DNA of 64,000 nucleotides from contig JACQSK010000021.1 of NCBI GenBank assembly GCA_016205975.1, positions 106,593-170,592 on the forward strand. Direction: 5' to 3'. How positions within the stretch are numbered: position 1 is the first letter of the stretch; each line of letters starts with the position of its first letter. The stretch comes from Candidatus Uhrbacteria bacterium (GTDB lineage: Bacteria; Patescibacteriota; Patescibacteriia; UBA9934; GWF2-40-263). A program made the position numbers and the translations under genes. The notes under the pieces are model-generated. The model did no database searches. It was not told the DNA's origin and saw only the letters and a program-made list of their open reading frames with translations. Shown here piece by piece: positions 4,721 to 49,211 of this stretch.

Positions 4721-4839
4721 TTGACAACGCCACGCGTTTCATGATGAATTGATCTCGCTCGGGGCGAAACTAAACCGACTGCCTGGATTCTCCGGGGGCC
4801 GTTTCAAACTCGCTGCCTTGCATCAACACGAGGTTCTCA

Positions 4840-32309: not shown

Positions 32310-32322
32310 GCGGCGTTCCCAC

Positions 32323-32700
32323 GTGGCCTCCGATAGACTGCGCGGCCCGATGTCCTCCCCCCGTGCGTTGCTGTTCATCGACCTCCGGCTGCCAGCGGCG
32401 TTCGTCCTGGACGAGCCGGCGTTCCTCCGGGTGAACGACGGGGTGCTCGTCGTGGACGGAATCTCGGCGGTCGAGGCGCGCCGAGTCGCGGCGCAGCTCG
32501 TCTACGACGGGGCGCGCGCCCACGTGGCGCTACCCGCGCCGGGGACCACGCCCGACACCCCCGGTCACCCGCACCCGGCCGGGACGCTCGTGCACGTCCC
32601 GGGAGACGGAGCGGGTTGGGGCGCGGAGCTGCCACGACTCGTGGCGGCGAGGGTCGGCTCCCGCGCCGCGGCCGGGAAACCGCGCGGCGTCCCGGGGTAG
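32323..32700 (+). CDS. hypothetical protein
   Basis: Short ORF immediately after the PilZ gene. Weak evidence. Confidence 0.25.
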   Translation: MASDRLRGPMSSPRALLFIDLRLPAAFVLDEPAFLRVNDGVLVVDGISAVEARRVAAQLVYDGARAHVALPAPGTTPDTPGHPHPAGTLVHVPGDGAGWGAELPRLVAARVGSRAAAGKPRGVPG

Positions 32701-32749
32701 CGTCGAGATCCCGGGACGTTCCGCTGGCCCGTCCGCTACCGAGCGGTAC

Positions 32750-33487
32750 CTACAGCTCCTGGGCCACGAGCGTCACGGCGATCAACTCGCCCTCCACACC
32801 CCTGGTCCTGAGCCGGTTCGCCGCCGCGTGGGACGCGCCAGCGATGTCGGCGGCGACGAGCCCGTAGGCGCGAACTCCCGTCGGCGTCTCGACCTGCACG
32901 ATGTACACGAGCTGACCGCTCGCGGTGCCCGGGGATGCGCTCGGCGAAGGGGAAGGCGCGGGCGTCGCGGCAACAACCGGCGCTGGCGGCGCTGCGAGGG
33001 CGTCGCGGTCCGCCGTAGCCAGCTCGATGCCCCGGCGGGCTCGGTAGGTCCGGACGTTCTCGGGCGTCACGCCAGCGAGCTTGGCGATCTCGTCGTCCGG
33101 CGCCTTGCCGAGCATGGCCGCGTACGGGTCGAGCTTCGACCGGCGGCCGTAAAACGGCCGCACACGGCCTGTACCTGCCGCGGAAGCCGCCGCCCTCGCC
33201 GCCGGCGCTCTGGTGCGCGAGGCCGACGCGGATGCGATCGATGCCGGGGCGGCGGGTCGCACGATGCGCCGCCGCGGTGCGCGTGTCGCGGGCTCCGCCG
33301 CCGCTGGCGCTTGTCGTCCCGGTCCGGCCCCGAACTTGTAGCCCTCGTAGGCGGGGATCCCGAGCTGCTTGCGGTAGTTCACGATCGACGACCGGGACAC
33401 GCCCGCCTCCCTCGCAACGAGGTGGTCCGGCTCCTTTCCAAGCCGGTCGTGGAAGGCAGCGAGCTTCGTGGCGCTCGGGCTGGGCAT
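32750..33487 (-). CDS. hypothetical protein with two repeated HTH-like segments
   Basis: EAGVSRSSIVNYRKQLGI and LAGVTPENVRTYRARRGI are duplicated. Pro/Ala-rich linker between them. Confidence 0.4.
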   Translation of the reverse strand: MPSPSATKLAAFHDRLGKEPDHLVAREAGVSRSSIVNYRKQLGIPAYEGYKFGAGPGRQAPAAAEPATRAPRRRIVRPAAPASIASASASRTRAPAARAAASAAGTGRVRPFYGRRSKLDPYAAMLGKAPDDEIAKLAGVTPENVRTYRARRGIELATADRDALAAPPAPVVAATPAPSPSPSASPGTASGQLVYIVQVETPTGVRAYGLVAADIAGASHAAANRLRTRGVEGELIAVTLVAQEL

Positions 33488-33685
33488 GATCGAGGCTCCG
33501 GGGATGAGCTCGGTCGTATGCCACCGGGTTTCGCATGACAACGGGTCCGGTCCCCCGGATCGCGGCGACAGCGGCCCTGCGTGCCGGGAGGGCCCCGGGA
33601 GTGTGCGACCGGGAGCGACGCGGCCAACGAAAACAACAGGACCCTCCGGCCCTGTCTTTTGCTAGTTGACGCGCCTGGGCGTCTT

Positions 33686-35368
33686 CTACGCATCCCGCGC
33701 CCGGATCCACGTTTCGAGCTGCGTCGGGGGCATCGGCCGCGCGACGTGCCAGCCTTGCGCCTGGTCGGCTCCGTTCTCGCGCAGGTACTGCGCCGCGGCC
33801 GCCGTCTCCACCCCCTCGGCGATCACCGCGAGGTCCAGCCCGTGCCCGAGCTCGATCGTCGCCCGGACCACGAGTGCCTCCTTGCGGCCCGCCGGGAGCG
33901 CGCGGACGAACCGCTGGTCGATCTTCACCGCGGAGACCGGGAGGGACACCAGGTAGCCGAGCGAGGAGTACCCGGTGCCGAAGTCGTCGATGGATACCGC
34001 GATCCCCCGCGCCGCCAGCTCCCCCAGGACCGCGATGGCGTGCGCCGGGTCCTGCATGATCTCGCTCTCGGTCACTTCCAGCTCCAGGCAGCTCGGCGGC
34101 ATCTCGGCCTGGGCAAGCGCCGCGTCGAGGTGCTCGACCAGGTCCGCGCGACCGAGGAGCCGCGCGGAGAGGTTCACTGCGACCCGCGTGCCCGGGTGGG
34201 TGGACAGCCACGAGCGCGACTCGGAAAGTGCGCGTCGAACGAGGGACCGGGTGAGCGGCACGATGTCGCCCAGCCGCTCGGCGACGGGGATGAACCGGCC
34301 GGGTGGAACCGGGCCCAGCTCCGGGTGCGTCCAGCGCGCCAGCGCCTCGGCTCCCGAAAAGGCGCCGCTCGCGAGGTCGACCTTGGGCTGGTAGGCGAGG
34401 GTGATCTCCCCGCGCTCGACCGCGCGGCGCAGGTCCGCAGCTAGCGCGAGCGCGGAGGGGTCGAACGTGTCCATGGTGACGTTGAACTCGACGAGTGCTT
34501 CGCCGGAGCGCCGGCTCGCGTTCACGGCGACGTGGGCAGCACGGCGCAGCGCGTTCACGCCGGTCCCGTCGCGGGGGGAAACCGCGAACCCGGCCGCGGC
34601 CGCGACGGTGAGCCGCACCCCGCCGATCTCCACCGGGTTCGCGAGCGCCCCGAGCAGGTCCTGGGCGATCTGCCGGCACGTCGCCGGCCCCTCCGGCACG
34701 AGCACGGCGAACCCGTCCCCGCCGCCGCGCGCGAGCAGGCAGCCCGGGGGCGTGGCCCTCCGGGCGCGCTCGGCCAGCTCCTGGAGGACCCGGTCGCCCA
34801 GCTCGAACCCCAGCGCGTGGTTGATCTCCCGGAACTCCCGGATCTCCACCGCGATGAAGCCCGTCTCGGCGACGCCCGCGAGCTGAGCCGCCTCGAACGC
34901 CGCCATCGCGTTGCGGTTGGGCAGCCCCGTGAGCGGGTCGTGGTAGGCGAGCCAGTGCGCGCGCTCGTCGGCGGCCCTTCGCGCCGCGCGCTCCTGGGCC
35001 CGCACCATCTCGCGCGCCAACGCGCCGGGAAGGCGGGCGAGCCGGTCCTTGGGGACGAAGTCGTCCGCGCCCCGGCGGACGAGGTCGGCCACGGTCTCCT
35101 CGCCGACGGTCCCGGAGACGACCAGAAGCGCCACGTCGCGCAGGCGGGCACGCACGAGCGCGATGCTCTCGCCTGCGTCGAGCTCGGGCAGGTGTGCGTC
35201 CACGAGCACCGCGTCCCAGGACTCGCCCAGGGCCTCTTCGAGCCCCGGCCGGTCCTCGACCCGGGAGACCGCGACAGTCAAGCCACCGCGGCGCAGCGCC
35301 CGCAGCACGAGCTCCGCGTCGGCCGGGTCGTCCTCGACGTGCAGGATGCGAAGGGGAGGGGTGGGCAT
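33686..35368 (-). CDS. response regulator receiver-GGDEF(degenerate)-EAL protein (c-di-GMP phosphodiesterase type)
   Basis: N-terminal REC (ILHVEDDPADAELV ... DAVLVD). GGDGF in place of GGDEF. EAL motif (EALARW) and DDFGTGYSSL. Confidence 0.75.
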   Translation of the reverse strand: MPTPPLRILHVEDDPADAELVLRALRRGGLTVAVSRVEDRPGLEEALGESWDAVLVDAHLPELDAGESIALVRARLRDVALLVVSGTVGEETVADLVRRGADDFVPKDRLARLPGALAREMVRAQERAARRAADERAHWLAYHDPLTGLPNRNAMAAFEAAQLAGVAETGFIAVEIREFREINHALGFELGDRVLQELAERARRATPPGCLLARGGGDGFAVLVPEGPATCRQIAQDLLGALANPVEIGGVRLTVAAAAGFAVSPRDGTGVNALRRAAHVAVNASRRSGEALVEFNVTMDTFDPSALALAADLRRAVERGEITLAYQPKVDLASGAFSGAEALARWTHPELGPVPPGRFIPVAERLGDIVPLTRSLVRRALSESRSWLSTHPGTRVAVNLSARLLGRADLVEHLDAALAQAEMPPSCLELEVTESEIMQDPAHAIAVLGELAARGIAVSIDDFGTGYSSLGYLVSLPVSAVKIDQRFVRALPAGRKEALVVRATIELGHGLDLAVIAEGVETAAAAQYLRENGADQAQGWHVARPMPPTQLETWIRARDA

Positions 35369-35485
35369 GAGCGCCTATTGTGCGGCACGTGGGCGACCGG
35401 GCATAAGCGGATCCCTGCGGACCGGGGGCGGGGCGTACTCAACGACGAGAACGCGCCGCGGGAACGGGCGTTGTAGGATGCCGCG

Positions 35486-36253
35486 ATGTTCCGCCGGGGC
35501 CGGGTTCTCGCTGCGCGTGTCGCGTCCTGGTCCCAGGTCCGCCTGGGGACAGTCGGCGTGCGCGATCTCCGGTTCGTCTTGGTGTACCTGCCGGCGGGAC
35601 TGTTGCCGGCGCTCTTGGCGGCATTCTACGGGCGCGACGAGATCCGCGACCGAGCGGTGCCGGTGCCGCTGCTGCTGGGCGCGATCGCGAGCCTGCTCGT
35701 GCTGGGGGTCATCGTCTCGCTCTACCGGCAGGTCGAGCGCGCGGACCGCCTGCGCGACGAGCTGGTGGCGCTCGCCTCCCGCGACCCGCTCACGGGTCTC
35801 TCCAACCGCCGCATGCTCCAGCCCACGCTCGCTCGCACGAGCCGGCAGGCGGACCGGGGCGGCACCCCCGCGTGCCTGGTGCTCATGGACCTGGACGACC
35901 TCAAGATCGTGAACGACCGGATGGGGCACGCCGCGGGGGATGCGCTCCTCGTCGGGTTCGCGCGCACGCTCCGGCGGGTGACCCGGGCGCAGACCGACCT
36001 GCTGTTCCGCATCGGCGGCGACGAGTTCCTCGTCGTGCTCCCCGGCGCGGCGATCCCGCACGCCCGCGTTATCGCCGAGCGGCTCCTGGAGGCGCTCGCC
36101 GAGGACACCGCGCCGGTCCCGGGGGTGCATCCCCGCTGCTCCATCGGGGTGGCACAGCGCCACGGGCAGGAGCGCCCCGAGGCGTGGCTGCGCCGCGCCG
36201 ACCTCGCGATGTACCGGGCGAAGGAGACGGGCGCCGGCGTCGAGGTGGCGTAG
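35486..36253 (+). CDS. membrane-anchored GGDEF diguanylate cyclase
   Basis: Two N-terminal TM helices, then LTGLSNRR ... RIGGDEF ... a typical GGDEF domain. Confidence 0.7.
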   Translation: MFRRGRVLAARVASWSQVRLGTVGVRDLRFVLVYLPAGLLPALLAAFYGRDEIRDRAVPVPLLLGAIASLLVLGVIVSLYRQVERADRLRDELVALASRDPLTGLSNRRMLQPTLARTSRQADRGGTPACLVLMDLDDLKIVNDRMGHAAGDALLVGFARTLRRVTRAQTDLLFRIGGDEFLVVLPGAAIPHARVIAERLLEALAEDTAPVPGVHPRCSIGVAQRHGQERPEAWLRRADLAMYRAKETGAGVEVA

Positions 36254-36262
36254 GCGACGTCC

Positions 36263-36652
36263 TCAGCGCCAGAGCAAGCGCACCTGGTCCCCGTCCAGCG
36301 CGTACCCGCACAGGTCGGCCTCGACATGCGCCTGCCGCAAGAGCGCCCGCGCGGCCGGCATCTGCTCGGCGGGGACGACGAACCACGCCCGCGCCCCGGT
36401 CGCCGCGGCATGCTCGGCGGCGCGCCGCCACCGCTCGCCCTCGCCGGGGTTCGCGGCGTCCACCCCGGTCCGCACGACGAGGCTGCGCACGTACCGGTCC
36501 TGGCGTTGCACCACGACGTCGGCCACGCCCCCCTCCGCGAACGACGGCCGACACGGCTCGGCCCGGTAGGTTCCGTGTCCCGTGTACTCCCGGAGCAGCC
36601 GCGCGATCACCCGCGCGCGGACGGCCCCCGCATCGCCCGTCGGCTTGTCCAT
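36263..36652 (-). CDS. hypothetical protein
   Basis: Start at MDKPTG with a GGGAG RBS. Confidence 0.35.
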   Translation of the reverse strand: MDKPTGDAGAVRARVIARLLREYTGHGTYRAEPCRPSFAEGGVADVVVQRQDRYVRSLVVRTGVDAANPGEGERWRRAAEHAAATGARAWFVVPAEQMPAARALLRQAHVEADLCGYALDGDQVRLLWR

Positions 36653-36723
36653 CTCGCAGCTCCCAGCAATGTCCTGCACAGCATGCGAGCTTCATCGGCC
36701 GGCAACGCGGCGAGTTGAGGCGG

Positions 36724-37392
36724 TCAGCCTCCCAGCCCGGACGGGGGCTCGCCTCCCTCGATCTCGGCTTCGCGACGGGCCACGTGGCGGTGCAGCCGCG
36801 TCGCGTCTCCCTCCGGGAGCGACTCGAGGTGGACGCCGCAGCGCCACGCGCCGGCGAGCGCCGGGTCGGGCCGGCCGACCTGGCCGACGCTCCCGTGACC
36901 CACCACCCACCCGTCCCCGCGCAGGTGGAACTGGATCGCCTCTACGGGCGTGCCGCGCGCAAGGTCCCGGTCCGCGGCTTCGGCGGCGAACCCGATCCCA
37001 CGTTCCCCGACGTCCAGCAGCCGTCGGACCCGGGGACGACCTGCCACCCGGAACACGAGATCCGTGTCCCGGGCCGCGGGGACCCGGCGATGCGCCCGCC
37101 GCTCGTCCCAGCGCAGGAAGCGGGGTTGACCGACCACCACCCGCTCCCGCGAGACGAGGTGAACGACGGCGACGAGCACCACCGGGCGCGCGACCTCGAC
37201 GCGGAGCTGGAGCTCGGTCCCGGGTCGCACCGCGGGGTTCCCGCTCCCGTGATCCAGGAGCACGACCAGGATCCCCGAGGTGGCGCACCAGCTCTCGACC
37301 TGTCCGCGCACCGGCACGCCTCGCTCCTCCACGGCGACGCCGGCCCGCGTCGCGCTCGCCTCGCGCAAGAGATCATCCAGGCGTGGCGGCAT
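36724..37392 (-). CDS. PilZ-like domain protein
   Basis: RRAHRRVP followed by DVGERGIGF (a variant of the RxxxR / D.S..G signature). Confidence 0.45.
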   Translation of the reverse strand: MPPRLDDLLREASATRAGVAVEERGVPVRGQVESWCATSGILVVLLDHGSGNPAVRPGTELQLRVEVARPVVLVAVVHLVSRERVVVGQPRFLRWDERRAHRRVPAARDTDLVFRVAGRPRVRRLLDVGERGIGFAAEAADRDLARGTPVEAIQFHLRGDGWVVGHGSVGQVGRPDPALAGAWRCGVHLESLPEGDATRLHRHVARREAEIEGGEPPSGLGG

Positions 37393-37911
37393 GGCCACCC
37401 CCGGCGCGTGGACGCGAAAAACGCTCGCGGCGTGGGCGGCGAGCGTCAGGGTGGGCCGGACGGTTCGAGAGCATGCTCGCCCCGGGGCTACGGGGAGAGG
37501 ATAGCACTCAGAGGCGCCCGCGCGCGGTCGTGCCGGACCACGGCGCACATGAACCCGCACCCGTATGTGGCCGGTCGGTGTAGTCGCGCCGGGACAGGCC
37601 CGAAAGCCTGATGGGTCACACTCACGCCGCATGACTGCCGTATCGCGGCCGGGACTTCCTGATCACCCACGCCGCTCTTGGTCACGTTTACCAGACGATG
37701 CGGGCTGGTCACTCGCTGAGGTGGACGCGACCGGAGGGCGACGCGACGTGGTTCCCTGACCTACCCGCCTCGCGGCTTCGGAGGCCGACCTGCCGAAGGG
37801 GCTGGGGCGGAGCCTGGATTGTGGACAACCGATCCCCCAGCGGGGGGCTTCGGCTGCGCCGGTCCTGACTGAGGGGGCTGATACCCGCCCTTTCGGAGAG
37901 GCTGATAGCCC

Positions 37912-38709
37912 TCATGGAGGGGGTGCTTGTTCGCCATCGTCGACTCTCGGGATTCCGAAGAAGCGTATCACGCGCTGGTTGGCCGAGGCGAAGGCCCGTT
38001 GAATCCATGAGCGCCAGCCCGTGACCGCGGTGATCTCGCGTCCCGGACTTTCCGCCTCGAGCAGTTCCATGCACGCGATCTCCGACCCGCTGATCCACCC
38101 ACCGATGCTGCCCGGGGCTGGTTCTACGAGGCTCCCTTCGTCATCGACGCGCCAGAGCGTCTGGAGGTAGATGTCTCGCGGGTCGGGATGGCTGGTCGCG
38201 TAGGACTCCCGCGACCACCAGCCCACAACGCATCGCCCGTCCTTCAGGGTGATCCGGATGAAACAAGGTGGCAGGCGCTCGAAGACGTAGTCCCACGCGG
38301 TCGGCTGCAGGAGTTGGAAGCCGATGTAAGCGGGCAGTCGCGGGAATATCTTCACGGTTCGGGCGCCGAGGTAGGCGACGATGGGTGCGAGCACGATTAC
38401 GCCAGCCGGTAGGAGCAGGACATCACCCGGCATGGCTGCATTTGCGGATGTGATCGGCTTCAGCAGACTGAGTTCGAGCAGGGGGGCCAAGAGCGGCAGC
38501 AGCCATCCCCCGATGTGTGTGGGAAGTAGGACGCGGGCCCCTACAAGGCAGGACGACCACCACAGCGCGGAGTAGGTCAACGACCTGAGAACCAGGTGGC
38601 CGGCCTCGGGCTTCGTTCGCGTGACCATGTAGTCCCACACATGCGCCAACAGGAAGCCAGGCGCGACGAAGCAAAGGAAAATGAGAAGCGCTTCGATCGT
38701 GCTCGGCAT
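37912..38709 (-). CDS. integral membrane protein (lower-GC islet)
   Basis: Multiple TM helices. Local GC about 58%. Confidence 0.45.
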   Translation of the reverse strand: MPSTIEALLIFLCFVAPGFLLAHVWDYMVTRTKPEAGHLVLRSLTYSALWWSSCLVGARVLLPTHIGGWLLPLLAPLLELSLLKPITSANAAMPGDVLLLPAGVIVLAPIVAYLGARTVKIFPRLPAYIGFQLLQPTAWDYVFERLPPCFIRITLKDGRCVVGWWSRESYATSHPDPRDIYLQTLWRVDDEGSLVEPAPGSIGGWISGSEIACMELLEAESPGREITAVTGWRSWIQRAFASANQRVIRFFGIPRVDDGEQAPPP

Positions 38710-38893: not shown

Positions 38894-39709
38894 CTACCGA
38901 CTCCGGAACACCTCCGGCGCGCTTTCGAGTTGCGCGAGGTCCAGCTCCAGGCGCGTGTCGCCCCCGTCGCAGCTCGCGCCCACGGTGAACGCGCCCCACG
39001 CGAGCAACGAGAGCGTGGCCTCGCCGTCCTCGACGGGCCGGGTCACCACCGGCGAGGGGAACGTCGGGTGGAGGTGGAACGTGACGCTGCCGGTGAGCGG
39101 GTCGCCCGGGTTCGTAGAGCACACGCGCAGGCGGACGCGGAACCAGCTCGCGCTTCCCGGCACCGCTACGACGATCGCGCACAGCCGGCGGTCGTTCGCC
39201 GCGGCCATCCCGCCCCACTTTCCCTTGTGCGGGTCCTCGTCCGCGGGGGCCGCGCCCACCGCCCGTCCCCGGTCGCCCTCCACGTCCAGGAGCATGTCCT
39301 CCTCCGCGACCGGGCGGGACCCACCGGGCCGGGGGATGTGGTCGAACACCGCGCCGGTCGCGTCCAGGTCGTCGGCGACCTCCTTTACTCGTCCACGCAC
39401 CCGCTCGATCTCCCCCCGCTGGGTTTCCAGGGCGGCCTGGAGATCCTGCATCTCGATTTTGTTGTCCCCGAACGAGAGCGACTTCACGCGGTGGAGGATG
39501 GTGACCGCGCCGGCCACGAGGAAGAAGCGCGCGGCCGTGTCGTCGATGTCCTGGCCGCCGACCAGTTGGCGGATGAGCACCGCCGCGCCGGCCAGGGCGG
39601 AGAGCGCCCCGATGGTCGCGAGGAGCCTCGCCGGGAGCCGCTCCCCGGCACCGGGGGATGGCGGCGCCGCGGGGACCTTCGCGAGCGACTCCTTCGGGCC
39701 GGCCGTCAT
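38894..39709 (-). CDS. membrane-anchored coiled-coil protein, downstream partner of the hydrolase-caspase gene
   Basis: Start overlaps the upstream stop. TM LLATIGALSALAGAAVLI. Coiled-coil IEMQDLQAALETQRGEIERVRGRVKEV. Confidence 0.45.
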   Translation of the reverse strand: MTAGPKESLAKVPAAPPSPGAGERLPARLLATIGALSALAGAAVLIRQLVGGQDIDDTAARFFLVAGAVTILHRVKSLSFGDNKIEMQDLQAALETQRGEIERVRGRVKEVADDLDATGAVFDHIPRPGGSRPVAEEDMLLDVEGDRGRAVGAAPADEDPHKGKWGGMAAANDRRLCAIVVAVPGSASWFRVRLRVCSTNPGDPLTGSVTFHLHPTFPSPVVTRPVEDGEATLSLLAWGAFTVGASCDGGDTRLELDLAQLESAPEVFRSR

Positions 39710-41475
39710 CGCCGTCCCCCGCCCGGTACCGGCTCGTCTCGCCGTGACCGTGGCCCTGCGAGCTGCGGGTGCTGGTCGTAGCCGAGCGCCGCGATCGACC
39801 TCGACGCCCGCTTCACGAGCTGGTTGAACGTGAGCGCCTCGCCCTTCGCCCGCGCCCGGCGCAGCTCGGCGACGACGCACCAGGTGAACGCGCCGTAGGC
39901 CGCGGTGCCGTTGCGGTACTCGTACGCCAGTTCCTGTTCGCGGCAGGCGTACAGCAGCAGCGGGACGTACGGCCCCTTGTGTCCGTAGGCCGTGCGCGCG
40001 TGCTCGAACTGCACCGCGGAGTCCGACCAGACCGGGAGCGCGCGCCCGAGCCGCTTCGTGGCCCCGCCCGTCCCGAGCATCTCGGCGCGGTCGGCCTTGC
40101 GCGTGACGAGCGGCTTGGCCTTCCGAGGAAGGTCGCGCTGCTTCCAGAGTCCGAGGTCCGCGTCCCACGCGAGCGCACGGTGGCGGATGTCGTCGGGGAG
40201 AGGGAGCCCGCGGGCGCGAACGCCGCCCTCGCGGGTGAGCCCGCCGGAGTGGCAGCAGTCGAAGATGGCGGTGAACTGCGTGCCGTACGGGAGCTGGGTG
40301 TACAGCTCGAAGAACTGGTCGTCGGTGAACGCCCGGTCGCGCGACCAGTCGAAGTCGTGCGGGACCAGGCATTCATCGAGCCCGTCGACCTGGTCGCCGA
40401 TCCCGTAGGTGGGGACCTGCGCCCCGTGGCCGGAGTAGAAGAAGACGCGCTGCGCCCCGTCGTCGGCGTCGTCGAGGAGCCACTCCAGCCGTTCTTGGAT
40501 CGCGCCGCAGGTCGCACGGCCGTCGAGCACCACCCGGATGTTCTCGGGGGCGAACCCCAGCTCCTGCAATGCCGCGCTCACGAGATAGGTGTCGTTCACG
40601 CACCCCTCCAGGCGCATGTCCGGCTTGGGGTAGCTGTTGATGCCGACTAGCAGCGCCCGGTGCTGGGGCGTCTTGCGCAGCGTCGCGCGAGGCGCGAGCG
40701 CCGCGGTCGCCATGGCGGACTTCGCGCCGGCGATCGCCCGCCACGCCCGCTGGCCGGTGCTTGCGTGGGAGAGGTACTGCGCCCCGTCGTGGTCGAGCGG
40801 CCCCGGCACGTCGAACCGGGTCTCCACTTCCTGCACGGGCTGGATGCGGAACCGGTCGAGCGAGGCGGTGAATGCCGCGTCCTCGGGGTTGAACAGGTGG
40901 AACCAGCCACGTGCCGTCTCCAGGCTGCGCAGTCGCCCACCGAACGTGGCGCGCACGGCGGGGTTGCCGATCTGCGAACCGAACGTGACGAGCCAGCGGT
41001 CCTTCACGAGCGACGGGTCGAGCGCGAACGTGTCGTACGCGAGGAGCGACCCGAGGCTGTGGGCGCAGACGAGCCGCGGTTGCTGAGCGCCGATTGCCGC
41101 GGCAAGGTGCTTCCTCAGCGCCGCGCGCAGCTTCTCGTCGGCCGCCCACTGCGCGACCATGCCCACCGTCCACCGGACGGCCTCGCCGACCCCGCCCCGG
41201 GCGAGCCGTTTCGCGCCGGGCGTCCCGACGAGATCGCCGACGCCATGGACAACGAGGCTCCCCATGAGCCGCGCGAACGCCTCGGCGACGAGCAGCGGGT
41301 TGATCTTCGCCTTCTCGAAGAACGAGTCGTACTCCAGGAAGGTGATGTCGCTCGGCGAGACCTGCTGGCCCCAGCGCGACAGGCCCGAGACGATCGCGGA
41401 CGTCCAGCCGGCGCGCCAGCTCGGATCGGCGTCGCCGTGGCCGATGCCGTGGATACACAGGATGGGGAAGGACAT
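39706..41475 (-). CDS. fusion protein: N-terminal alpha/beta-hydrolase (GxSxG) + C-terminal caspase-like peptidase C14 domain
   Basis: N-terminal LCIHGIGHG ... CAHSLGS (serine hydrolase nucleophile elbow). C-terminal LLVGINSYP ... FFYSGHGAQ ... FDCCHSGG (caspase His/Cys dyad). Confidence 0.6.
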   Translation of the reverse strand: MSFPILCIHGIGHGDADPSWRAGWTSAIVSGLSRWGQQVSPSDITFLEYDSFFEKAKINPLLVAEAFARLMGSLVVHGVGDLVGTPGAKRLARGGVGEAVRWTVGMVAQWAADEKLRAALRKHLAAAIGAQQPRLVCAHSLGSLLAYDTFALDPSLVKDRWLVTFGSQIGNPAVRATFGGRLRSLETARGWFHLFNPEDAAFTASLDRFRIQPVQEVETRFDVPGPLDHDGAQYLSHASTGQRAWRAIAGAKSAMATAALAPRATLRKTPQHRALLVGINSYPKPDMRLEGCVNDTYLVSAALQELGFAPENIRVVLDGRATCGAIQERLEWLLDDADDGAQRVFFYSGHGAQVPTYGIGDQVDGLDECLVPHDFDWSRDRAFTDDQFFELYTQLPYGTQFTAIFDCCHSGGLTREGGVRARGLPLPDDIRHRALAWDADLGLWKQRDLPRKAKPLVTRKADRAEMLGTGGATKRLGRALPVWSDSAVQFEHARTAYGHKGPYVPLLLYACREQELAYEYRNGTAAYGAFTWCVVAELRRARAKGEALTFNQLVKRASRSIAALGYDQHPQLAGPRSRRDEPVPGGGRR

Positions 41476-41628: not shown

Positions 41629-42144
41629 ATGTGGTGGTGGGCGGCCTCGGCGCTCGCGGGTGACTGCACCCGGTTCACGGAGTGCGATGAGAGCGTCGTC
41701 GGCGTGGCGGCTACGATCGGCGCGCCGACGGGTCTACGAGTCGAGTTCTTTCCGCAGCTCGAGGGAGGGCGGTGGATGCTGTCGATCGAGGGAGTCGTGC
41801 AGGGGACGGCACACGCGGTCGGCCTGGTCGGCACGATCGGTGCCGGCGTACGCGCCCACCTTGTTCCCACCGCGGGGAAGAGGGGGGCGCTGGTGCTGGC
41901 GCCGGGCCTCGGCATCCACGGGTACTTCCCAGGAGCCGATGACGGCTGCTCCGGTCTCGGGTGCCTGGACTTGACGCCGAACACGCCGCTGCTGTTCGTC
42001 TACCCGTCGATGGACATCGGCTACGCCCACGCCGGGCGGGTCGGCTTCCACCTCGGTCTCGAGCTGGGCGCCAGTGCGACCCTCCCCGAACGCGAGTTGG
42101 TGGTGTCCCCGCAGGGAGCGGTGGTGACTGGCGCGCGGTTCTGA
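41629..42144 (+). CDS. hypothetical (possibly secreted) protein
   Basis: 171-aa ORF, Gly-rich and beta-like. Confidence 0.35.
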   Translation: MWWWAASALAGDCTRFTECDESVVGVAATIGAPTGLRVEFFPQLEGGRWMLSIEGVVQGTAHAVGLVGTIGAGVRAHLVPTAGKRGALVLAPGLGIHGYFPGADDGCSGLGCLDLTPNTPLLFVYPSMDIGYAHAGRVGFHLGLELGASATLPERELVVSPQGAVVTGARF

Positions 42145-42163: not shown

Positions 42164-45100
42164 CTAGAACCCGCCGAAGATCACGTACACCGCACCCGCA
42201 TACGTGCCGTTCGTGCTCTCGTTCGCATTGGCGAGGAGGATATCGGGCACCCCGTCCGCATCGATGTCCGCGGCATCGCCGAGGCCCCCGGCGCCCCCGA
42301 CGGAGGCGTCGGCCTCCGTCTCCAGGAAGGTCCCGGAGAGGGGGCCGTAGAATGCGTAGGCGTTTCCCGTTGCTCCGTTGCCGGAGTTGAACAGGATGTC
42401 GGGCACGGCGTCGTCGGAGACGTCGCCCAGATGGGCATTTGCGCCCACCCCGCCGGATTCCTCGCCGTAGATGACCGCCGTGGCGGACGCGAGGGTGACG
42501 GTCGACCAGTCGGCGCGGGCGCGCCCATCGACCAGGTACACCGCCCCTCCGCCCGACGCGGCGTAGTCGACTCCCGGCAGCCCGAGCAGGATGTCGTCGT
42601 AGCCATCGCCGTTGGCATCCTCGCGGCAGTCGATGGTCATGCCGAGCCCATCGCCGTCCACGGACTGCTCGAAGATCACGTCCGCGTCCGCGTCGAGGCT
42701 CATCGACCCTGCCACCGGGCCGAATGCCAAGTACACGCGCCCTGCCGTGCCTGCGTACCAGTTGTAGGCGCCCACGAGGATGTCGTCGTAGCCGTCGCCA
42801 TCGACGTCGCCTGAGTTCGAACCTTCCATTCCCGTGAACGTGTACGCCCCCGACATCGTCGCGACCGAACCGGTGGCAAGATCTACGTCCGTGCCGACGG
42901 GGCCATCCACGAGGTAGGCGACCCAGCTCTCCTCGTTGCCAACGAGCACGTCGGCGTCACCATCACCATCCACGTCGCCGCTGCTCAGCGCCCGTTGCGA
43001 GCCGTACGTGCCCGCCCCGTCGAGAATCCACGCATCTCCCACGGCGCTGCCGGACGAGATCGGCCCGGGAAGCGCGTAAACGGCATCCACGGCGCGAACA
43101 AGAAGGTCCGCGACGCCGTCGTCTGTCACGTCGCCGATCGCGAGCGTACCCCCGATCTGTTCGTCGGTGACCGTGCCCTCGAAGCGGTACTCGGCCGTAG
43201 CAAGCGTGTCCGATGCAGACGGTGCACCGCTGTACACGTACGCCTCCCCGACCGCGTTCGTGCCAGCGCCGGGCACGCCGATCGCGACGTCGAGCACACC
43301 GTCGTCGTCGAGGTCGCCGATGGCGAGCCCGGTACCTGCATGGTCGCTGGTGTCCTCCCCGTAGATCGTCACATCTACCTGGTCGACAGAGCACCAGTCC
43401 ACGATGCCGTCGCAATCGTCGTCGACGCCGTTCAGGCAGACCTCCGCGAAGTCCGGGCTGCGCATCGCGTCCGCGTCGTCACAATCCTCGCACGCGACGC
43501 TCCCATCGCTGTCCGCGTCGGTGGTCTCGTCCGTGCCCAGCGACCCGTCGCAGTCGTTGTCCTGCGCGTCGCACACCTCGGTGGCGCCCGGGTACACGGT
43601 GCTGTCGCCGTCGTCGCAGTCGGCGACGACCTCGCAGGCCGCTGCGTCGTCGAAGTCCGAGCACTCGCACGCGAGCGCGCCGTCGCCGTCGTCGTCGACG
43701 CCCTCCCCGATCGGGTACTCCCCGTTGCAGTTGTTGTCCTCCCCGTCGCAGATCTCCTCGGCACCGGGGTGGATGGTGTCGTCCCCGTCGTCGCAGTCCT
43801 CCTCCTCGCCCGAGCCGTCGCAGAGGTAGTAGCCGTCGCCGTCCGCGTCGGTCCCGCCGTCGGAGGTGGAGCTGTTGCAGTCGTTGTCGACGCCGTCGCA
43901 CAGCTCCTCGGCTCCCGGGTACACCGCGTCGTCGGCGTCGTCGCAGTCGTTGTCGTCTGCGACGTAGCCTCCGGGGGCCTCGCACGCGGTCAGCGCCGCG
44001 CCGGCGCCGTAGCCGTCGTCGTCCGTGTCCGCGTACCAGGACGCGGCGTCCGTCGCGGAGGCCTCGTCGACCTCCCCGTCCCCGTCGTTGTCCACGCCGT
44101 CGCACTCCTCCGCGTCGAGCGCGTCGCACGTGCCGTCCCCGTCGGCGTCGGCGGTGCCCTCATCGACGTCGCCGTCCCCGTCGTTGTCCACCCCGTCGCA
44201 GTCCTCGGCGTCGTGGCAGTCGACGATCCCGTCCCCGTCGGCGTCGAGGCCCTCGTCCACCGCGTCGTCGCAGTCGTCGTCGACGTCGTTGCACGTCTCC
44301 GTGGCGTCCGGGCTCACGCCCGCGTCGGTGTCGTTGCAGTCGTCGCCGATGGAGACCTGGTCCGCGCGCGGGGTGCAGTCGACCATCGGCGTCGTCGGGT
44401 CCCCGTGGCCGTCCCCGTCGGCGTCGGTGTACCAGGTCGGCACGTCCGCGGCGTCGTCCTCGTCGACCTCCCCGTCGCAGTCGTTGTCGGTGCCGTCGCA
44501 CACTTCGGTCGCGGAGGGGTTCACCGCCGGGTCGGTGTCATCGCAGTCGTCGCCGGTCGCGCAGGTGCCGGCGAGGATGGAGCCGTCGTTGTCCTCGTCG
44601 AGGCACTCGCCCACGGTGATCGCGACCTGGTCGGAGGCGGACTCCCCGTCGCCGTCGGTCACGGAGAGGGTGAGCACGTGGTCGCCGGGGGAGAGCGCGA
44701 CGTAGTCGGTCGTCTCGCCCGACTCGGTCGCGAGCCCGGACAGCACCACGCCGTCGAGGCTGCTCGTCCACTCCACGGCGAGCTGGTCGAGGAGCGTCTC
44801 CTCGTCGAAGACATGCCCGTACAGCCAGGTGAGCTCGTCCTCGGGGAGCGCGTCGGTCGAGGACGGGCGCACGATCGTGGAGGTCGGGGCGTGGTTGGCG
44901 ACGCAGGCGAACGACACGGATGCATCCGCGAAGAGGGCATCCGCGTCGGTGACGCGCAGGGTGACCTCGTAGGCGCCTTCGTAGGCCGGAGTCCACGATG
45001 CCGCGACGACGCCCGAAGCGTCGGGCCCGGACACGTCGAGCGACTCCTCGCGGTCCGCATCCACGGCGTACACGCTCCACGTGACGATCAGCGCGTCGTT

Positions 45101-45271
45101 CACGGTTCGACCGTCGCTGTCGGAGACGAGCCCGGAGAGCGTCAGCTCGCGCCCAACCAGGCACCCGCCGCCCGAGTCCGTGATCGCGGCCTCGGGGCCT
45201 TTCAGGTAAACGGAGAGACCGGCGTCGCTGCAAGCAGTGAGCACGAGCATCGGGGAGAGTCGGCGAAGCAT
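42164..45271 (-). CDS. large lipoprotein (1035 aa) with FG-GAP/VCBS-like repeats and multiple 'putative metal-binding motif' repeats
   Basis: Lipobox LVLTAC. More than 8 DCDDxD...CDGxDNDCDG repeats. FG-GAP-like D.DGDG...G segments. The antisense ORFs are Arg-rich junk. Confidence 0.65.
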   Translation of the reverse strand: MLRRLSPMLVLTACSDAGLSVYLKGPEAAITDSGGGCLVGRELTLSGLVSDSDGRTVNDALIVTWSVYAVDADREESLDVSGPDASGVVAASWTPAYEGAYEVTLRVTDADALFADASVSFACVANHAPTSTIVRPSSTDALPEDELTWLYGHVFDEETLLDQLAVEWTSSLDGVVLSGLATESGETTDYVALSPGDHVLTLSVTDGDGESASDQVAITVGECLDEDNDGSILAGTCATGDDCDDTDPAVNPSATEVCDGTDNDCDGEVDEDDAADVPTWYTDADGDGHGDPTTPMVDCTPRADQVSIGDDCNDTDAGVSPDATETCNDVDDDCDDAVDEGLDADGDGIVDCHDAEDCDGVDNDGDGDVDEGTADADGDGTCDALDAEECDGVDNDGDGEVDEASATDAASWYADTDDDGYGAGAALTACEAPGGYVADDNDCDDADDAVYPGAEELCDGVDNDCNSSTSDGGTDADGDGYYLCDGSGEEEDCDDGDDTIHPGAEEICDGEDNNCNGEYPIGEGVDDDGDGALACECSDFDDAAACEVVADCDDGDSTVYPGATEVCDAQDNDCDGSLGTDETTDADSDGSVACEDCDDADAMRSPDFAEVCLNGVDDDCDGIVDWCSVDQVDVTIYGEDTSDHAGTGLAIGDLDDDGVLDVAIGVPGAGTNAVGEAYVYSGAPSASDTLATAEYRFEGTVTDEQIGGTLAIGDVTDDGVADLLVRAVDAVYALPGPISSGSAVGDAWILDGAGTYGSQRALSSGDVDGDGDADVLVGNEESWVAYLVDGPVGTDVDLATGSVATMSGAYTFTGMEGSNSGDVDGDGYDDILVGAYNWYAGTAGRVYLAFGPVAGSMSLDADADVIFEQSVDGDGLGMTIDCREDANGDGYDDILLGLPGVDYAASGGGAVYLVDGRARADWSTVTLASATAVIYGEESGGVGANAHLGDVSDDAVPDILFNSGNGATGNAYAFYGPLSGTFLETEADASVGGAGGLGDAADIDADGVPDILLANANESTNGTYAGAVYVIFGGF

Positions 45272-45473: not shown

Positions 45474-45761
45474 TCACTCCTCGTCGGTGATCTTGTCGAG
45501 GAGCTTCACGAGCAGGTAGGCCAACCCGCCGACCGCCGCGGCGCCAACCAGGACGGCGATCACCGCCTTCGCCGTCGATGGGTCCTTGGCGAGCTTCTCG
45601 CGCAGCCCGTTCAGGACCGCCTCGGCCGCCCCGGTGGGCCGGGCGATCCCGGCTTCCCAGCGGGTCACGGTCCGGGCGTCGACGCCGACGAGTCGTGCGA
45701 AGCTGGCCACGTCGAGGTCGAGGTGCTGCCGGAGATCACGGACGTCCTGCGCGTTCCACAT
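45474..45761 (-). CDS. XRE-type HTH regulator with C-terminal TM anchor
   Basis: DVASFARLVGVDARTVTRWEAG is an HTH. C-terminal AVIAVLVGAAAVGGLAYLLV is a TM helix. Confidence 0.5.
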   Translation of the reverse strand: MWNAQDVRDLRQHLDLDVASFARLVGVDARTVTRWEAGIARPTGAAEAVLNGLREKLAKDPSTAKAVIAVLVGAAAVGGLAYLLVKLLDKITDEE

Positions 45762-45881
45762 GCGCCGATTCGCTCCTTGAAACCTTGTAGCACGCAGTCG
45801 GTCAGCGCCGTGACCGTCATCTGTCGCTGTTCCGTAATCCACAATACAGACACGGTCGAGGCCGAGGTGTAGCGTCCACGC

Positions 45882-46160
45882 ATGAGTTCCCGCTGGCACA
45901 CCCCCGCTCTCGCCTGGCCTCGCGGCCAGGTCCTCGACCTCGTTCGCTCTCTTCCTACCGGGCAGGGCCGCCTCCACTACCAGGAGTGGCCGGGCGGGCG
46001 GGGCGAGACCCACCGGGACCGGTTCGACCCCGAGCGCGGTCCCGCCCAGGCGGTGCTGCACGTCCTGCTCGAGACGCCGATCCTCGTCATCCTCGCCGCC
46101 CTCGGCGCCCTCGGGTTCGCCGGGTACGGCGTGGTTCGCTACCTCCGGGGTGCGCGGTGA
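45882..46160 (+). CDS. small membrane protein
   Basis: C-terminal TM helix. Stop overlaps the next GTG start. Confidence 0.3.
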   Translation: MSSRWHTPALAWPRGQVLDLVRSLPTGQGRLHYQEWPGGRGETHRDRFDPERGPAQAVLHVLLETPILVILAALGALGFAGYGVVRYLRGAR

Positions 46161-46600
46161 ACCGCATCCACCCGTCGCGTCTCCTGGCATCGACGGTGAT
46201 CGGAGTCCCAGCAGAGGTGGGCGGCGGCCTGCTCACGGTGGAGCACGTGGGGGTGGTGGCGTCCCTGCAGGACCAGCAGGGCCTGCCCTTCGTGTACAAC
46301 GCCTCGAAGCGCACCGGGAGGATCATGCTCGACTCGTGGGCCGAGTTCACACAGCGGCGGGAAGGCCGGGTGCTCGACGTCCGGGGCGCCCTCGATGCCG
46401 ACGAGGTCCTGCGCCGTGCGCACTCGCGCCTCGGAGAGCGCTGGAACCTCGTCTTCTCGAACTGCGAGCACTACGTGCGCTGGTGCCACGACCTCGACGA
46501 GGAGAGCCCGCAGCTGCAGAAGGGCCTGGTGGTCGCGGGCGGGCTCGTGGCTCTCGGCGGACTCGTCATCGCCGCCATCGCGACCGCGGACGAGGGGTAG
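46157..46600 (+). CDS. NC-domain (LRAT/NlpC-P60 superfamily) protein with C-terminal TM
   Basis: NCEHYVRWCH resembles the NCEHF motif of LRAT-like NC domains. C-terminal TM GLVVAGGLVALGGLVIAAIA. Confidence 0.45.
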   Translation: MNRIHPSRLLASTVIGVPAEVGGGLLTVEHVGVVASLQDQQGLPFVYNASKRTGRIMLDSWAEFTQRREGRVLDVRGALDADEVLRRAHSRLGERWNLVFSNCEHYVRWCHDLDEESPQLQKGLVVAGGLVALGGLVIAAIATADEG

Positions 46601-46606
46601 CCTCAA

Positions 46607-46803
46607 CGGGGTGGGGCCCGATCGCCTTCTGGTCCGCAACCAGAAGGTCGAGCGCCAGCCAGACAGTCTGGCAACGGGGTGCAAAACGGTGCGTTTTTGG
46701 GCAAAACCGTGCAGGGTATGATCCAAAAAATACAGGTACTTGGCTAATATTATTACATTTCGGGACCAGAAGGTCGTGGGTTCGAATCCCGCCACCCCGA
46801 CCA
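46607..46803 (+). tRNA. split / disrupted tRNA-like locus (3' T-arm+acceptor+CCA at ~46765-46803; candidate 5' half at ~46607-46650)
   Basis: GGUCGUGGGUUCGAAUCCCGCCACCCCGACCA is a canonical T-arm plus acceptor plus CCA. CGGGGUG at 46607 pairs 7/7 with CACCCCG. A 7-bp stem / 7-nt loop hairpin (CUUCUGG-UCCGCAA-CCAGAAG) lies between. An ~115-bp AT-rich insert is flanked by a 12-nt direct repeat accagaaggtcg. Coordinates +/-2. Confidence 0.35.
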
Positions 46804-47551
46804 TCGAAAAGGAAAGGCCGGACGAGGAGAATATCCAGTCCGGTCTTTTTGTTTCTTGCGACGCGAAGGACGACTGTCTGGCGCGCCGGTCTTGCGGGCG
46901 ATGCCCAATCGCGTCGATCAGCCCAGTAGCCAGCCACAATCTGCGTGACGGCGCCGCCGGTCCTCACTCGCGAGGATCGCGTCGACCTCGAGACCGAGCT
47001 GGATCCGCGCACGGACCTCGCCGTCGCGCTGGTAGATGGCGTCCGTGGCCTGGCTCTCGGCGGTGTCGCAGCGACCGCATCGATGCGGAAGGAGCGTCGA
47101 CGAGCCGTCCGGCCAGAGCCAGATATGGCGAGCCTCGTGCGAAATCGAGATTGCCGTCTCGAGAACCCCGTGTTGCTCAGGCGGAACCGCTAGAATCGCG
47201 ACGCGATGGAGACGCTGAGTGATGCATGCCAGGGCGCCGGGGCCGCACGCCGTCGGCGAAAAGGCGATCGTGAGAACCTTCCTTCGGACCGCAGCGTGCT
47301 CCTCGGGCACGTAGTGCTGCAACAGCCCGAGCGCCGTGCGAATGACGTGTACCCCCACGGGCGTGAAGCCCACCAGAGGAATCCCGCGGAACGCTGCCCG
47401 AGGGTAACGGGGTGCGACGGCCGCGTGCATGAGACCTCCGCCCGCAGCTTACACGCCTGGGCGCGCGTTCGGGATCCATGCGCGAGGCCGCTCCGATCGG
47501 AGCGGCCTGCCGGTCCACTGGATCCAGCTCGACAACGAAGAAACCGCTCGC

Positions 47552-48751
47552 CTATCGAGGCGAGCGGTGATTTGCCGAACGCGAGATCCCCGCCTTCGCC
47601 ATCACCTCCGCCTTGTGGGCGTCGGTGGTGTGCGCGTAGATCTCGTCCAGCATGCGCCCCTCGGTCCAGCCGCCGAGCTCCATGAGCGTGCGCCGATCGA
47701 CACCGGCGATCGCGAGCCGCGTCGCCCAGGTGTGGCGGAGACCGTGCGGGTGCATCGGGGGGAGGCCCGCGCGCTTGCAGGCGCGGCGCAGCGCGATGCC
47801 GAAGTCCTGGCGGGGCCGCGTGGGCGCGGTCGGGGAGGGGAAGACCCACCCGTGGGTAGGAGCGCCGAGTGCCACGTGACGGCGCCTGAGCTCGTCGGCG
47901 AGCTCGGGCGTCATCGGGATGGCGCGGTCATGCCGGGTTTTCACCTGGAACCGGATCTCCGGCTTCGCCCGGACCAGCATCGTGCCGTGCGGACCGACGT
48001 CCCACAGCACGTCTTCCCAGCCGCGCGAGAGGATCTCTCCCTTGCGCATGCCGAGGTTCAACGCCATCAGCACCGCGAGGTACGTGAGCGGGTCGCGCGG
48101 GATCGGGGGCTTCCCTCGCGTGACGACGTGAGGCTGTTCGCGCAGCGGCCCGACGGCGTCCAGGAGTCGTTCGCACTCCTCCGTGGAGAAGAAGCGATGA
48201 GCCCGACGATCGTTGTTCTTGATCCTTGGCATCTTGGGCAGGTGCGAGAGCACGCCGCTGTCGACCGCGTGGACGAGCGCGCCGCGAAGCCAGGCCAGCT
48301 CGATGATGATCGTCTTGCTCTTGCGCCCAAGAGCCCGCCGGGCGGTGACGTACCCGTCGATCGCGACGTAGTCGAGCGCGGAGAGCACGGTGTCGCCCAG
48401 CACCGGCTTCAACGCGTTCGCCGAGGTCTGCGCGCTCGTCGCGGTCTTCGGCGCCTTGTCGCGCCGGACCACCGGCAGGTAGACCTCGTCGAGGTAGCGC
48501 GCGAGCGTGTAGCCCGCGGGCTCAGCCCTCGTCGAGGAGCCACGCTCGGTACGCGGCGGCTCCACGGACTTCCCGGTCACGAGTTTCCCCTCGAACACCG
48601 TGAGCGCGTCCTTCGCCGCGGTCCTCGGGATGAACCCGAGCCCCCGGGTGCGGGTCTTGCCCGTTCCCGGGTCGCGCCACTGGATCGCGAAGTAGGGTTC
48701 CGTCTTGCCGCTGGCGCGGTTCACGCGCTTCACCTCGGTCAGCCATGCCAT
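47552..48751 (-). CDS. int: phage-type tyrosine integrase
   Basis: N-terminal arm-binding-like MAWLTEVKRVNRASGKTEPYFAIQWRDPGTGKTRTRG. C-terminal HGLRHTWATRLAIAGV...LGGWTEGRMLDEIYAHT. Lies next to the tRNA-like site. Confidence 0.7.
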   Translation of the reverse strand: MAWLTEVKRVNRASGKTEPYFAIQWRDPGTGKTRTRGLGFIPRTAAKDALTVFEGKLVTGKSVEPPRTERGSSTRAEPAGYTLARYLDEVYLPVVRRDKAPKTATSAQTSANALKPVLGDTVLSALDYVAIDGYVTARRALGRKSKTIIIELAWLRGALVHAVDSGVLSHLPKMPRIKNNDRRAHRFFSTEECERLLDAVGPLREQPHVVTRGKPPIPRDPLTYLAVLMALNLGMRKGEILSRGWEDVLWDVGPHGTMLVRAKPEIRFQVKTRHDRAIPMTPELADELRRRHVALGAPTHGWVFPSPTAPTRPRQDFGIALRRACKRAGLPPMHPHGLRHTWATRLAIAGVDRRTLMELGGWTEGRMLDEIYAHTTDAHKAEVMAKAGISRSANHRSPR

Positions 48752-49211
48752 CGTCTCTCTCCTTCCCGGCCGCGAGCACCGCGACCAGTCGTTCCCGGTG
48801 AATGCGCCACGCCCGGCCCGCCCGGACGGCGGCGCCGTCGAGCTGCCCCTCGGCGAGCAGCCGGCGGAGCAGCCGCTCCGACACCTGGAGGTGCGCGGCC
48901 GCCTCCTCCACGCTGAGCCAGTCGGACCGGCTCTCCCCGGGAGCGTACTGCGCGGACGGTGGAGCGGGGGAGGGGGGCGAGCGCTCCGCCGGCGACCCAC
49001 CGGTCGCTCCCAGGGTCGCGAGCACGTCCCCCCACCGGTAGACGGTAGACCCCGCGATCTCCCCGGCGGGAGCGACCGTCGCGACCAGCCACGCCTGTGC
49101 GCCGGGGCCGGGGCACGGGAGCGCCTCGGCCGCCTCCTGCGCGGACAGGAGCGACGTGGGCGCGAGCGACGCGCGCCACATCCGTCGCTGGAACGCGGAG
49201 AGCGCGCTCAT
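48752..49211 (-). CDS. excisionase/HTH-like DNA-binding protein (boundaries uncertain; frame runs on into the integrase gene)
   Basis: WLSVEEAAAHLQVSERLLRRLLAEGQLDGAAVRAGRAWRIHRERL is an Xis/MerR-like HTH just upstream of int. The ORF has no stop until 48522. Confidence 0.3.

Follow-up and report, generated by a model that had tools for sequence, protein, structure and literature searches.

A predicted α/β-hydrolase fused to a metacaspase-type protease and overlapping a pYEATS membrane-protein gene: a candidate cell-dismantling effector

Introduction

Alpha/beta-hydrolases and caspases have been predicted to serve as joint effector components of the vWA-MoxR-VMAP ternary conflict systems (Kaur, Burroughs, Iyer, and Aravind, 2020, eLife; PMC7159879), in which the two are separate neighboring genes, with the caspase fused to VMAP, in operons that also hold MoxR and vWA. 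The trypsin-nuclease pairs of Hachiman/AVAST and the caspase-nuclease pair Canu have been experimentally shown to be protease-activated pro-enzymes in phage defense, and further proteolytically gated enzyme classes have been predicted (Science 2025; PMC12799240). Here we describe a gene, designated A, that joins a predicted α/β-hydrolase to a metacaspase-type protease in one polypeptide, and whose stop codon overlaps the start of a second gene, B, encoding a predicted membrane protein with a C-terminal prokaryotic YEATS (pYEATS) domain. Both lie in a 64,000-nt stretch of DNA, hereafter the window, that is assigned to Candidatus Uhrbacteria bacterium (GCA_016205975.1, contig JACQSK010000021.1, 106,593–170,592 of the forward strand). 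Bacterial gasdermin-protease operons, reportedly described by Johnson et al. in Science in 2022, and the pYEATS-containing immunity proteins that Burroughs and Aravind are said to have described in J Bacteriol in 2020 serve as further points of comparison.

Results

The protease half of gene A

An initial annotation, made from the nucleotide sequence alone, had read a single 589-amino-acid (aa) open reading frame (ORF) with the motifs CAHSLGS, YSGHG and DCCHSGG and had proposed an α/β-hydrolase fused to a caspase-like peptidase. The coordinates and translation agreed with ours, and the fusion was confirmed, with the peptidase proving to be of the metacaspase type with its catalytic residues intact. 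In our reading, the motifs extend to VCAHSLGSL, FYSGHGAQ and FDCCHSGG. Residue conservation was assessed in two alignments, one of 20 and one of 77 full-length homologs of approximately 50% identity, where H9-G10, H139-S140-L141-G142, D199, H229, D295, H350, D406 and C407-C408 were invariant; because of this invariance, the motifs are not chance matches. The C-terminal half (aa 272–573) matched Pfam Peptidase_C14 (PF00656; clan CD) with an E value of 8.1e-29 and a score of 101.4 bits, where the cut-off is 21.4, covering profile positions 2–224 of 233.

A search of PDB sequences with the protease domain returned metacaspase-4 of Arabidopsis (AtMC4; 6w8s, E 7.4e-23), metacaspase-9 (AtMC9), MCA2 of T. 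brucei and Yca1 of yeast as the best matches. In the alignment with AtMC4, YSGHG falls on YSGHG and DCCHSGG on DSCHSGG, in register, and the entry for the C139A mutant (6w8r) places its alanine opposite C408, which identifies C408 as the catalytic cysteine. The spacing of the HG and CH elements, on which the initial annotation had made its caspase assignment depend, is thus compatible with that of solved metacaspases. D295, which lies in a GCVND motif, and D406, two residues before the catalytic cysteine, are aligned with the matching residues of AtMC4. In solved metacaspases, the acidic residues of GCVND and D-x-C form an S1 pocket for basic residues; because both are invariant in the A family, the protease of A is predicted to be Arg/Lys-specific.

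The p20-like part is followed by a conserved basic stretch (R415, R/K420, R422-G), then by a highly conserved insert, PPDDIRHRxLxW, and finally by a putative p10-like part (approximately aa 500–573) with the conserved motif ACxExExxYEYRxGxxxYGAFT, of which aa 506–572 match the p10 region of AtMC9 weakly (9.3 bits). A resembles the metacaspases (MEROPS C14B; those named above) in its p20 motifs, its acidic residues and the basic linker after p20, and may do so in its p10-like C-terminal part. The insert between p20 and p10 is a difference of the A family, and no characterized metacaspase is known to have an N-terminal α/β-hydrolase domain such as that predicted for this bacterial protein. Among dedicated models, NCBIfam caspase_w_EACC1 covered only the fragment aa 273–353 (36 bits against a cut-off of 140), and the 'caspase' model of PADLOC matched A only with its N-terminal third.

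The hydrolase half of gene A

The hydrolase domain of the window copy gave no match in Pfam, NCBIfam or PDB sequences, and the PDB profile search was empty even at an E value of 10; the fold was therefore taken from structure prediction, in which aa 1–270 are modeled as a minimal α/β-hydrolase. The predicted oxyanion residues H9-G10 follow the first strand, the putative nucleophile S140 (AHSLGS) follows the strand of aa 135–139, D199 follows that of aa 190–195, and H229 follows that of aa 214–218. Judged by this order of secondary structure elements together with the invariance of the residues, S140, D199 and H229 are predicted to form a Ser-Asp-His triad at the canonical α/β-hydrolase positions. 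A helical cap is inserted at aa 50–131; its central loop, which was modeled at lower confidence, carries R-x-R-G in most members of the family. Weak Pfam matches were found among 29 A-family members (Abhydrolase_6 in 9, Hydrolase_4 in 8 and Ser_hydrolase in 3), while DUF676/PGAP1, to which the initial annotation had likened the lipase, matched none of the 29 at E values up to 10, and that part of the assignment was abandoned. A has neither a signal peptide nor a transmembrane (TM) segment and is predicted to be cytoplasmic. A 2012 survey of prokaryotic metacaspase architectures (PMC3501461) does not mention the hydrolase-caspase fusion, as is expected given that the N-terminal domain has no profile.

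Distribution and architectures of the A family

Clustering at 90% identity divides the A family into more than 1500 clusters, almost all with proteins of 570–630 aa, and the only names given to them are 'caspase family protein', 'metacaspase-1' or 'hypothetical'. Relatives are encoded in 446 of 185,579 species genomes (0.24%), sporadically within genera, and occur in Pseudomonadota, Desulfobacterota, Nitrospirota, Planctomycetota, Verrucomicrobiota, Chloroflexota, Gemmatimonadota and others, with approximately 50% identity maintained across at least 10 phyla. Cultured hosts include strains of Pseudomonas, Bradyrhizobium, Cupriavidus, Geomonas and Sulfuriferula. Because the family is so thinly scattered, its pattern is that of an accessory, horizontally mobile gene; together with the variable neighborhoods described below, this distribution speaks against a common housekeeping ortholog, an outcome that the initial annotation had wished to see checked.

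When the hydrolase domain alone was compared with 1.84 billion representative sequences, 490 matches were obtained at E values up to 1e-3. A caspase domain directly follows the hydrolase domain in 103 of the best 149 representatives, and the other 46 are at most 417 aa long, many of them probably fragments; the order hydrolase-then-caspase is fixed. This two-enzyme cassette also occurs inside proteins of 700–1400 aa (P0346, P0351, P0368, P0381, P0399, P0415, P0333, P0311, P0359, P0365, P0424 and P0395). The added domains are an N-terminal phospholipase C-type domain in six representatives (PDB 8hav, E 3.7e-51), a C-terminal PLD/HKD domain in P0333 (7e0m, E 5e-5), an FAD-linked, aldonolactone-oxidase-like domain at either end in four representatives (8qnc, E 5e-7) and an N-terminal clostripain (C11) domain in P0395 (6n9j, E 1e-9). 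Shorter, N-terminal helical extensions of about 115–150 aa were also seen.

A well-conserved stand-alone family of 266–267 aa, in which HG and AHSLGS are retained, is related to the hydrolase domain of A (hhalign probability 97.9%). This family has at least 568 clusters and no Pfam model, and its gene occupies positions 4001–4801 in each of the loci L172–L179, in a conserved cluster with a protein of 174–184 aa and a PLDc_2 protein of approximately 750 aa; of the three contig sets inspected, one has a DUF900 hydrolase in this cluster as well. The cluster may be a separate, uncharacterized system.

Neighborhoods of the A family

The flanks of 80 A-family loci were highly variable. Peptidase_C11 (7) and Peptidase_C14 (5) were the commonest families among the 135 immediate flanking ORFs, followed by LysR and ABC transporters; with Peptidase_C70 (2), these peptidases jointly made up the commonest neighbors (14 of 135). 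The AAA+ proteins among the commonest families amounted to AAA_5 in three ORFs, listed with Sigma54_activat in three. A stand-alone paralog of the hydrolase domain was found at one locus (L017), and the A-family genes of Pseudomonas were repeatedly found at the same chromosomal position, beside glcD-like genes.

At the locus in the window, the stop codon of A (TGA, 39706–39708) and the start codon of B (ATG, 39707–39709) share the sequence ATGA, which suggests that translation of the two genes may be coupled. A purine-rich GGGGGA lies 6–11 nt upstream of the ATG of B. The G+C content at third codon positions (GC3) is 0.93 for both genes and is host-like. No homolog of B was found in the 80 A-family loci. 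In the closest relative of A (L081, 79% identity), no ORF start overlaps the stop codon, and the 189 bp that remain hold nothing resembling B. A tRNA-like sequence following this homolog was considered and was not confirmed by ARAGORN. We also considered a conserved A-B operon, with or without the next gene, C, and rejected it, as neither B nor C has a homolog beside the 80 A-family genes. The coupling proposed in the initial annotation is thus real in its overlap and is not conserved; the link between A and B is local and lineage-specific, rather than that of a conserved two-gene system.

Gene B and its pYEATS domain

The initial annotation had described the product of B as a TM-anchored, coiled-coil protein. 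The TM segment and the long helix were recovered, and a C-terminal pYEATS domain that had been overlooked was added, based on a match to PF20305 (E 1e-17, 64.2 bits against a cut-off of 26.9). In the AlphaFold2 model of B, a strongly hydrophobic helix (aa 21–51) and a weakly hydrophobic one (aa 57–74) precede a conserved KSLxFG hairpin (KSLSFG, aa 77–86), a long helix (aa 87–118) that resembles designed coiled coils, a disordered linker (aa 122–152) and a β-sandwich (aa 160–271) with a predicted local distance difference test score (pLDDT) above 90. Foldseek placed the sandwich with the YEATS domains of Taf14, Yaf9, AF9, ENL, YEATS2 and GAS41, at E values of 1.5e-4 and weaker and a probability of 1.0. 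The conserved motifs of B are FHLHPTF and AWGAFTVGA, and a profile search of PDB sequences aligned the former with YHLHPTF of Taf14. In eukaryotic YEATS domains, the HLHP[ST]F motif holds residues of the acyl-lysine pocket. The pYEATS domain of B is a predicted sensor of an acyl-amide or acyl-lysine-type ligand.

B-type proteins of the same architecture are known at 32–43% identity. The N-terminal module of B matched no Pfam family, YLATT (PF20303) included. The N-terminal domains of 77 other pYEATS proteins surveyed included TIR_2 (6), SIR2_2 (5), the three-TM YLATT (4), ParA-like (4) and SLOG (1) domains, an arrangement that fits a logic of N-terminal effector plus C-terminal pYEATS sensor. 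By analogy, the N-terminal module of B would be a membrane effector or anchor.

The neighbors of pYEATS genes were diverse, and those of the B-type relatives were unrelated. A caspase gene lay near a pYEATS gene at 3 of 77 other distinct loci (400 kb, 341 ORFs), a frequency that a rough estimate of caspase density, not a computed expectation, puts above chance, and one that is far from a rule. A-type genes were also sought beside relatives of B (in 6 look-ups and 80 metagenome loci); only stand-alone caspases were found, at these three distinct loci. One of them (L113:2284–5046) has genes for a 428-aa pYEATS protein and, starting 136 bp after it, for a Peptidase_C14 protein of 446 aa, and in another (L136) the two genes are 2.3 kb apart. 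The third (L095:881–5342, Ga0075421_100030272, plus strand; duplicate L096) encodes a 278-aa stand-alone caspase, a membrane coiled-coil protein, a 243-aa B-type protein with TM, coiled-coil and pYEATS parts and a 656-aa fusion of a papain-like peptidase with a DUF900-type α/β-hydrolase. Judged by its predicted domains, this locus appears to repeat the A-B theme with non-orthologous parts.

The locus and its surroundings

The features of the locus are collected in Table 1. The start codon of A is preceded by a GGAG motif 6 nt upstream, and homologs start at the same methionine. Gene C lies 185 bp downstream of B and shares its strand; no homolog of C was found at the 80 A-family loci or at 90 loci with a pYEATS gene. 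Because its GC3 is 0.77 and it shows no recurring association, C probably lies outside the A-B unit; its lower GC3 relative to its neighbors suggests that it is a separate, more recent acquisition. A promoter and terminator scan of 37.5–42.2 kb gave nothing informative.

Table 1. Positions of genes A, B and C and of their domains in the window.
Feature	Position	Strand	Description
Gene A	39706..41475	−	589-aa predicted α/β-hydrolase-metacaspase fusion; start ATG at 41475; exact match to NCBI 'caspase family protein' (P0001)
Gene A, aa 1–270	40666..41475	−	Minimal α/β-hydrolase domain (predicted)
Gene A, aa 272–573	39757..40662	−	Peptidase_C14, metacaspase-type domain
A stop/B start overlap	39706..39709	−	Junction sequence ATGA
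Gene B	38894..39709	−	271-aa predicted membrane protein with C-terminal pYEATS domain; identical to NCBI gene call P0121
Gene B, aa 160–271	38897..39232	−	Prokaryotic YEATS β-sandwich (predicted)
Gene C	37912..38709	−	265-aa DUF6338 membrane protein (Pfam E 5e-40)

Approximately 700 bp upstream of A, a 1035-aa protein (42164–45271, minus strand) contains six Cu-binding_MopE motifs with PKD-like and FG-GAP repeats; a divergent 171-aa ORF (41629–42144, plus strand) lies between the two, and a second FG-GAP protein is encoded at 25619–26938. On the other side, a cyclic di-GMP cluster (31578–37632) consists of a PilZ protein, a response-regulator-GGDEF-EAL protein and a GGDEF protein, beside which two ORFs (36263–36679 and 36724–37632) had no Pfam match. 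Farther upstream of A are an HTH_3/MqsA-like protein (45474–46190, minus strand), an LRAT/NlpC-like protein (45986–46600, plus strand) and a tyrosine integrase (47552–49000, minus strand). The region 45474–49000 could mark one border of an integrated element; a search for a tRNA in it gave none. ARAGORN called a 90-nt tRNA-Arg(GCG) at 18100–18189 (minus strand), a call that is doubtful because an Rfam scan of the whole window at gathering thresholds returned no family, tRNA included.

The G+C content of the window is uneven, at approximately 0.60 over 1–20 kb and 0.70–0.76 over 30–58 kb. Genomes of the candidate phyla radiation are expected to be low in G+C. Given the 70% G+C and the presence of MopE/FG-GAP and cyclic di-GMP genes, the label 'Candidatus Uhrbacteria bacterium' of this metagenome-assembled genome, or its binning, may be wrong, and the stretch may be more like a myxobacterium-type genome.

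Discussion

The initial annotation had called the combination of lipase, caspase and membrane partner uncharacterized. No experimental characterization was found, and in this sense the statement stands; computationally, hydrolase and caspase had already been noted as neighboring genes (PMC7159879). A would be a fused version of that pairing. MoxR, vWA and VMAP were found neither within approximately 10 kb of A nor among the commonest families of the census of A-family neighbors. The window was scanned for genes of the ternary systems by way of hand-picked larger ORFs at 25.6–49 kb, whose domains were only GGDEF/EAL/PilZ, FG-GAP/MopE, LRAT, HTH and integrase. In A, as in the Canu-type pairs, a caspase-family protease is inherited together with another hydrolytic enzyme, and the cap insertion of A carries conserved basic residues; Canu differs in its separate metallo-β-lactamase (MBL) nuclease partner and MALT1-like protease, where A has a fused, predicted α/β-hydrolase and a metacaspase-like protease. 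The gasdermin-protease operons are like A-B in that a caspase-family protease is encoded beside a membrane-active protein whose linker may be cleaved. The likeness goes no further than analogy, as B is predicted to be constitutively membrane-anchored, has no gasdermin match and does not belong to a conserved pairing; neither a gasdermin nor an MBL nuclease was matched when B, C and the flanking ORFs were scanned with Pfam and PADLOC. B shares the C-terminal position of pYEATS with the TIR-, SIR2- and YLATT-pYEATS proteins. Coupling to a caspase gene is an unusual context for pYEATS immunity proteins, and the N-terminal module of B is unlike YLATT.

We tentatively propose, with a probability of roughly 0.45, that A is a latent, self-contained effector of cell dismantling, degrading both lipid and protein, of the kind found in bacterial conflict or programmed-death systems. 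A would then behave as a zymogen. A trigger, which may be Ca2+ or oligomerization as in metacaspases, would switch on the protease, and the protease would process A itself at the conserved basic sites that follow the p20-like part (R415, R/K420, R422), with the cap loop of the hydrolase as a possible second processing site. Processing would free the serine hydrolase to attack ester-linked substrates, most likely membrane lipids, while the protease itself would cut cellular proteins. In this genome, the pYEATS domain of B would regulate the N-terminal effector, here the membrane and coiled-coil module, and B could plausibly localize or gate A at the membrane; alternatively, A could cut the disordered linker of B. 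The recurrent fusion of the cassette with, or its adjacency to, phospholipases and further cysteine proteases argues for an effector of this kind. The fixed cassette with its intact catalytic residues, the sporadic distribution with its look of horizontal transfer, the conserved basic residues in the cap loop and after p20, the precedents in conflict and phage-defense systems, the fusions of pYEATS with TIR, SIR2 and YLATT, and the caspase genes near pYEATS genes, L095 in particular, point the same way. Several observations weigh against it. No known defense gene or NTPase sensor flanks A in this genome or its homologs in the family census; no MoxR, vWA, STAND or other sensor recurs across the 80 loci, and no conserved partner at the A loci presents itself as a sensor, antitoxin or immunity protein. 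Many A-family loci have housekeeping-looking neighbors (LysR, ABC transporters, GlcD), a search of 72,556 plasmids and of 50,697 phage records gave no full-length copy of the family, and identity of approximately 50% with many invariant residues is unusually high conservation for a conflict effector. In addition, the coupling of A to B is unique among 81 A loci, and the hydrolase of the caspase-pYEATS locus L095 is not specifically related to the N-terminal domain of A (hhalign probability 1.8%).

Part of this evidence would suit a physiological, non-conflict enzyme, such as a stress or developmental metacaspase with an esterase domain for the ordinary turnover of protein, lipoprotein or storage lipid, beside which B would lie by accident. 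The strong conservation across phyla, the chromosomal location of the family, with none on plasmids or phages, its often metabolic or regulatory neighbors, the repeated position of the Pseudomonas copies and the lack of any PADLOC defense system around the locus (only weak, distant matches to mad1 and mad8 were returned) all agree with such a role. An enzyme of that sort is harder to reconcile with a gene present in so few species and sporadic even within genera, with a recurring company of phospholipases and cysteine proteases that looks destructive rather than metabolic, and with the roles of the bacterial caspase-family proteases characterized to date, which act in defense (PMC12799240); we consider it unlikely, although far from negligible. 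If A and B (with or without C) were instead a dedicated two-gene system of abortive infection or signaling, B would sense at the membrane and A would be its obligate effector. The overlapping codons and equal GC3 of the two genes, the immunity-type architectures of pYEATS proteins and the caspase genes near pYEATS genes at three other loci would all be explained, but not the absence of B from the 80 A-family loci, the lack of an overlapping ORF start in the closest homolog of A, nor the unrelated neighbors of B-type relatives, both families being mostly stand-alone, and this reading is improbable. The high conservation, the housekeeping-like chromosomal flanks and the lack of a sensor are the reasons for which the physiological enzyme and the A-B system retain these weights.

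A might also be a delivered antibacterial or anti-eukaryotic toxin, that is, a lipase-protease effector of a secretion system with B or C as its immunity protein or chaperone. The combinations with lipase, PLD and PLC recall secreted, lipid-targeting effectors (Tle-type effectors of type VI secretion systems), A resembles contact-dependent effectors in having no signal peptide, and an SpvB-domain gene lies near the stand-alone relatives of the hydrolase. This explanation is very improbable, as VgrG, PAAR, Hcp and Rhs were neither among the top families of the 135 flanking ORFs nor in the window, no immunity-like gene is conserved next to A, and the 589-aa form lacks an N-terminal delivery domain. 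A more far-reaching version of the effector proposal would make the cassette a new class of proteolytically gated pro-enzyme, in which a cut in the cap loop, made by an Arg/Lys-specific caspase-fold protease, unlocks the fused lipase or phospholipase, controlled in this genome by a membrane-anchored reader of an acyl-lysine-like mark, the two forming an undescribed, membrane-directed suicide or defense pathway; taken as a whole, it is a long shot.

In several bacterial defense systems (gasdermin, type III CRISPR, Thoeris and Canu), the role of executioner or activator is now known to fall to a caspase-family protease. The two-enzyme cassette described here is widespread and uncharacterized: its family is large and has cultivable hosts, yet its N-terminal enzyme has gone unseen by Pfam and NCBIfam. 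A metacaspase hard-wired to a predicted serine esterase or lipase, together with the combinations that include PLC, PLD and clostripain, leads to a testable model of a single-polypeptide, protease-gated destroyer of lipid and protein, which, if true, would widen the principle of a protease activating a pro-enzyme beyond nucleases. The coupling to pYEATS in this genome offers a rare experimental handle on the ligands of bacterial YEATS domains, and the membrane-anchored reading, if true, would tie the sensing of an acylation signal to execution of the caspase type in bacteria.

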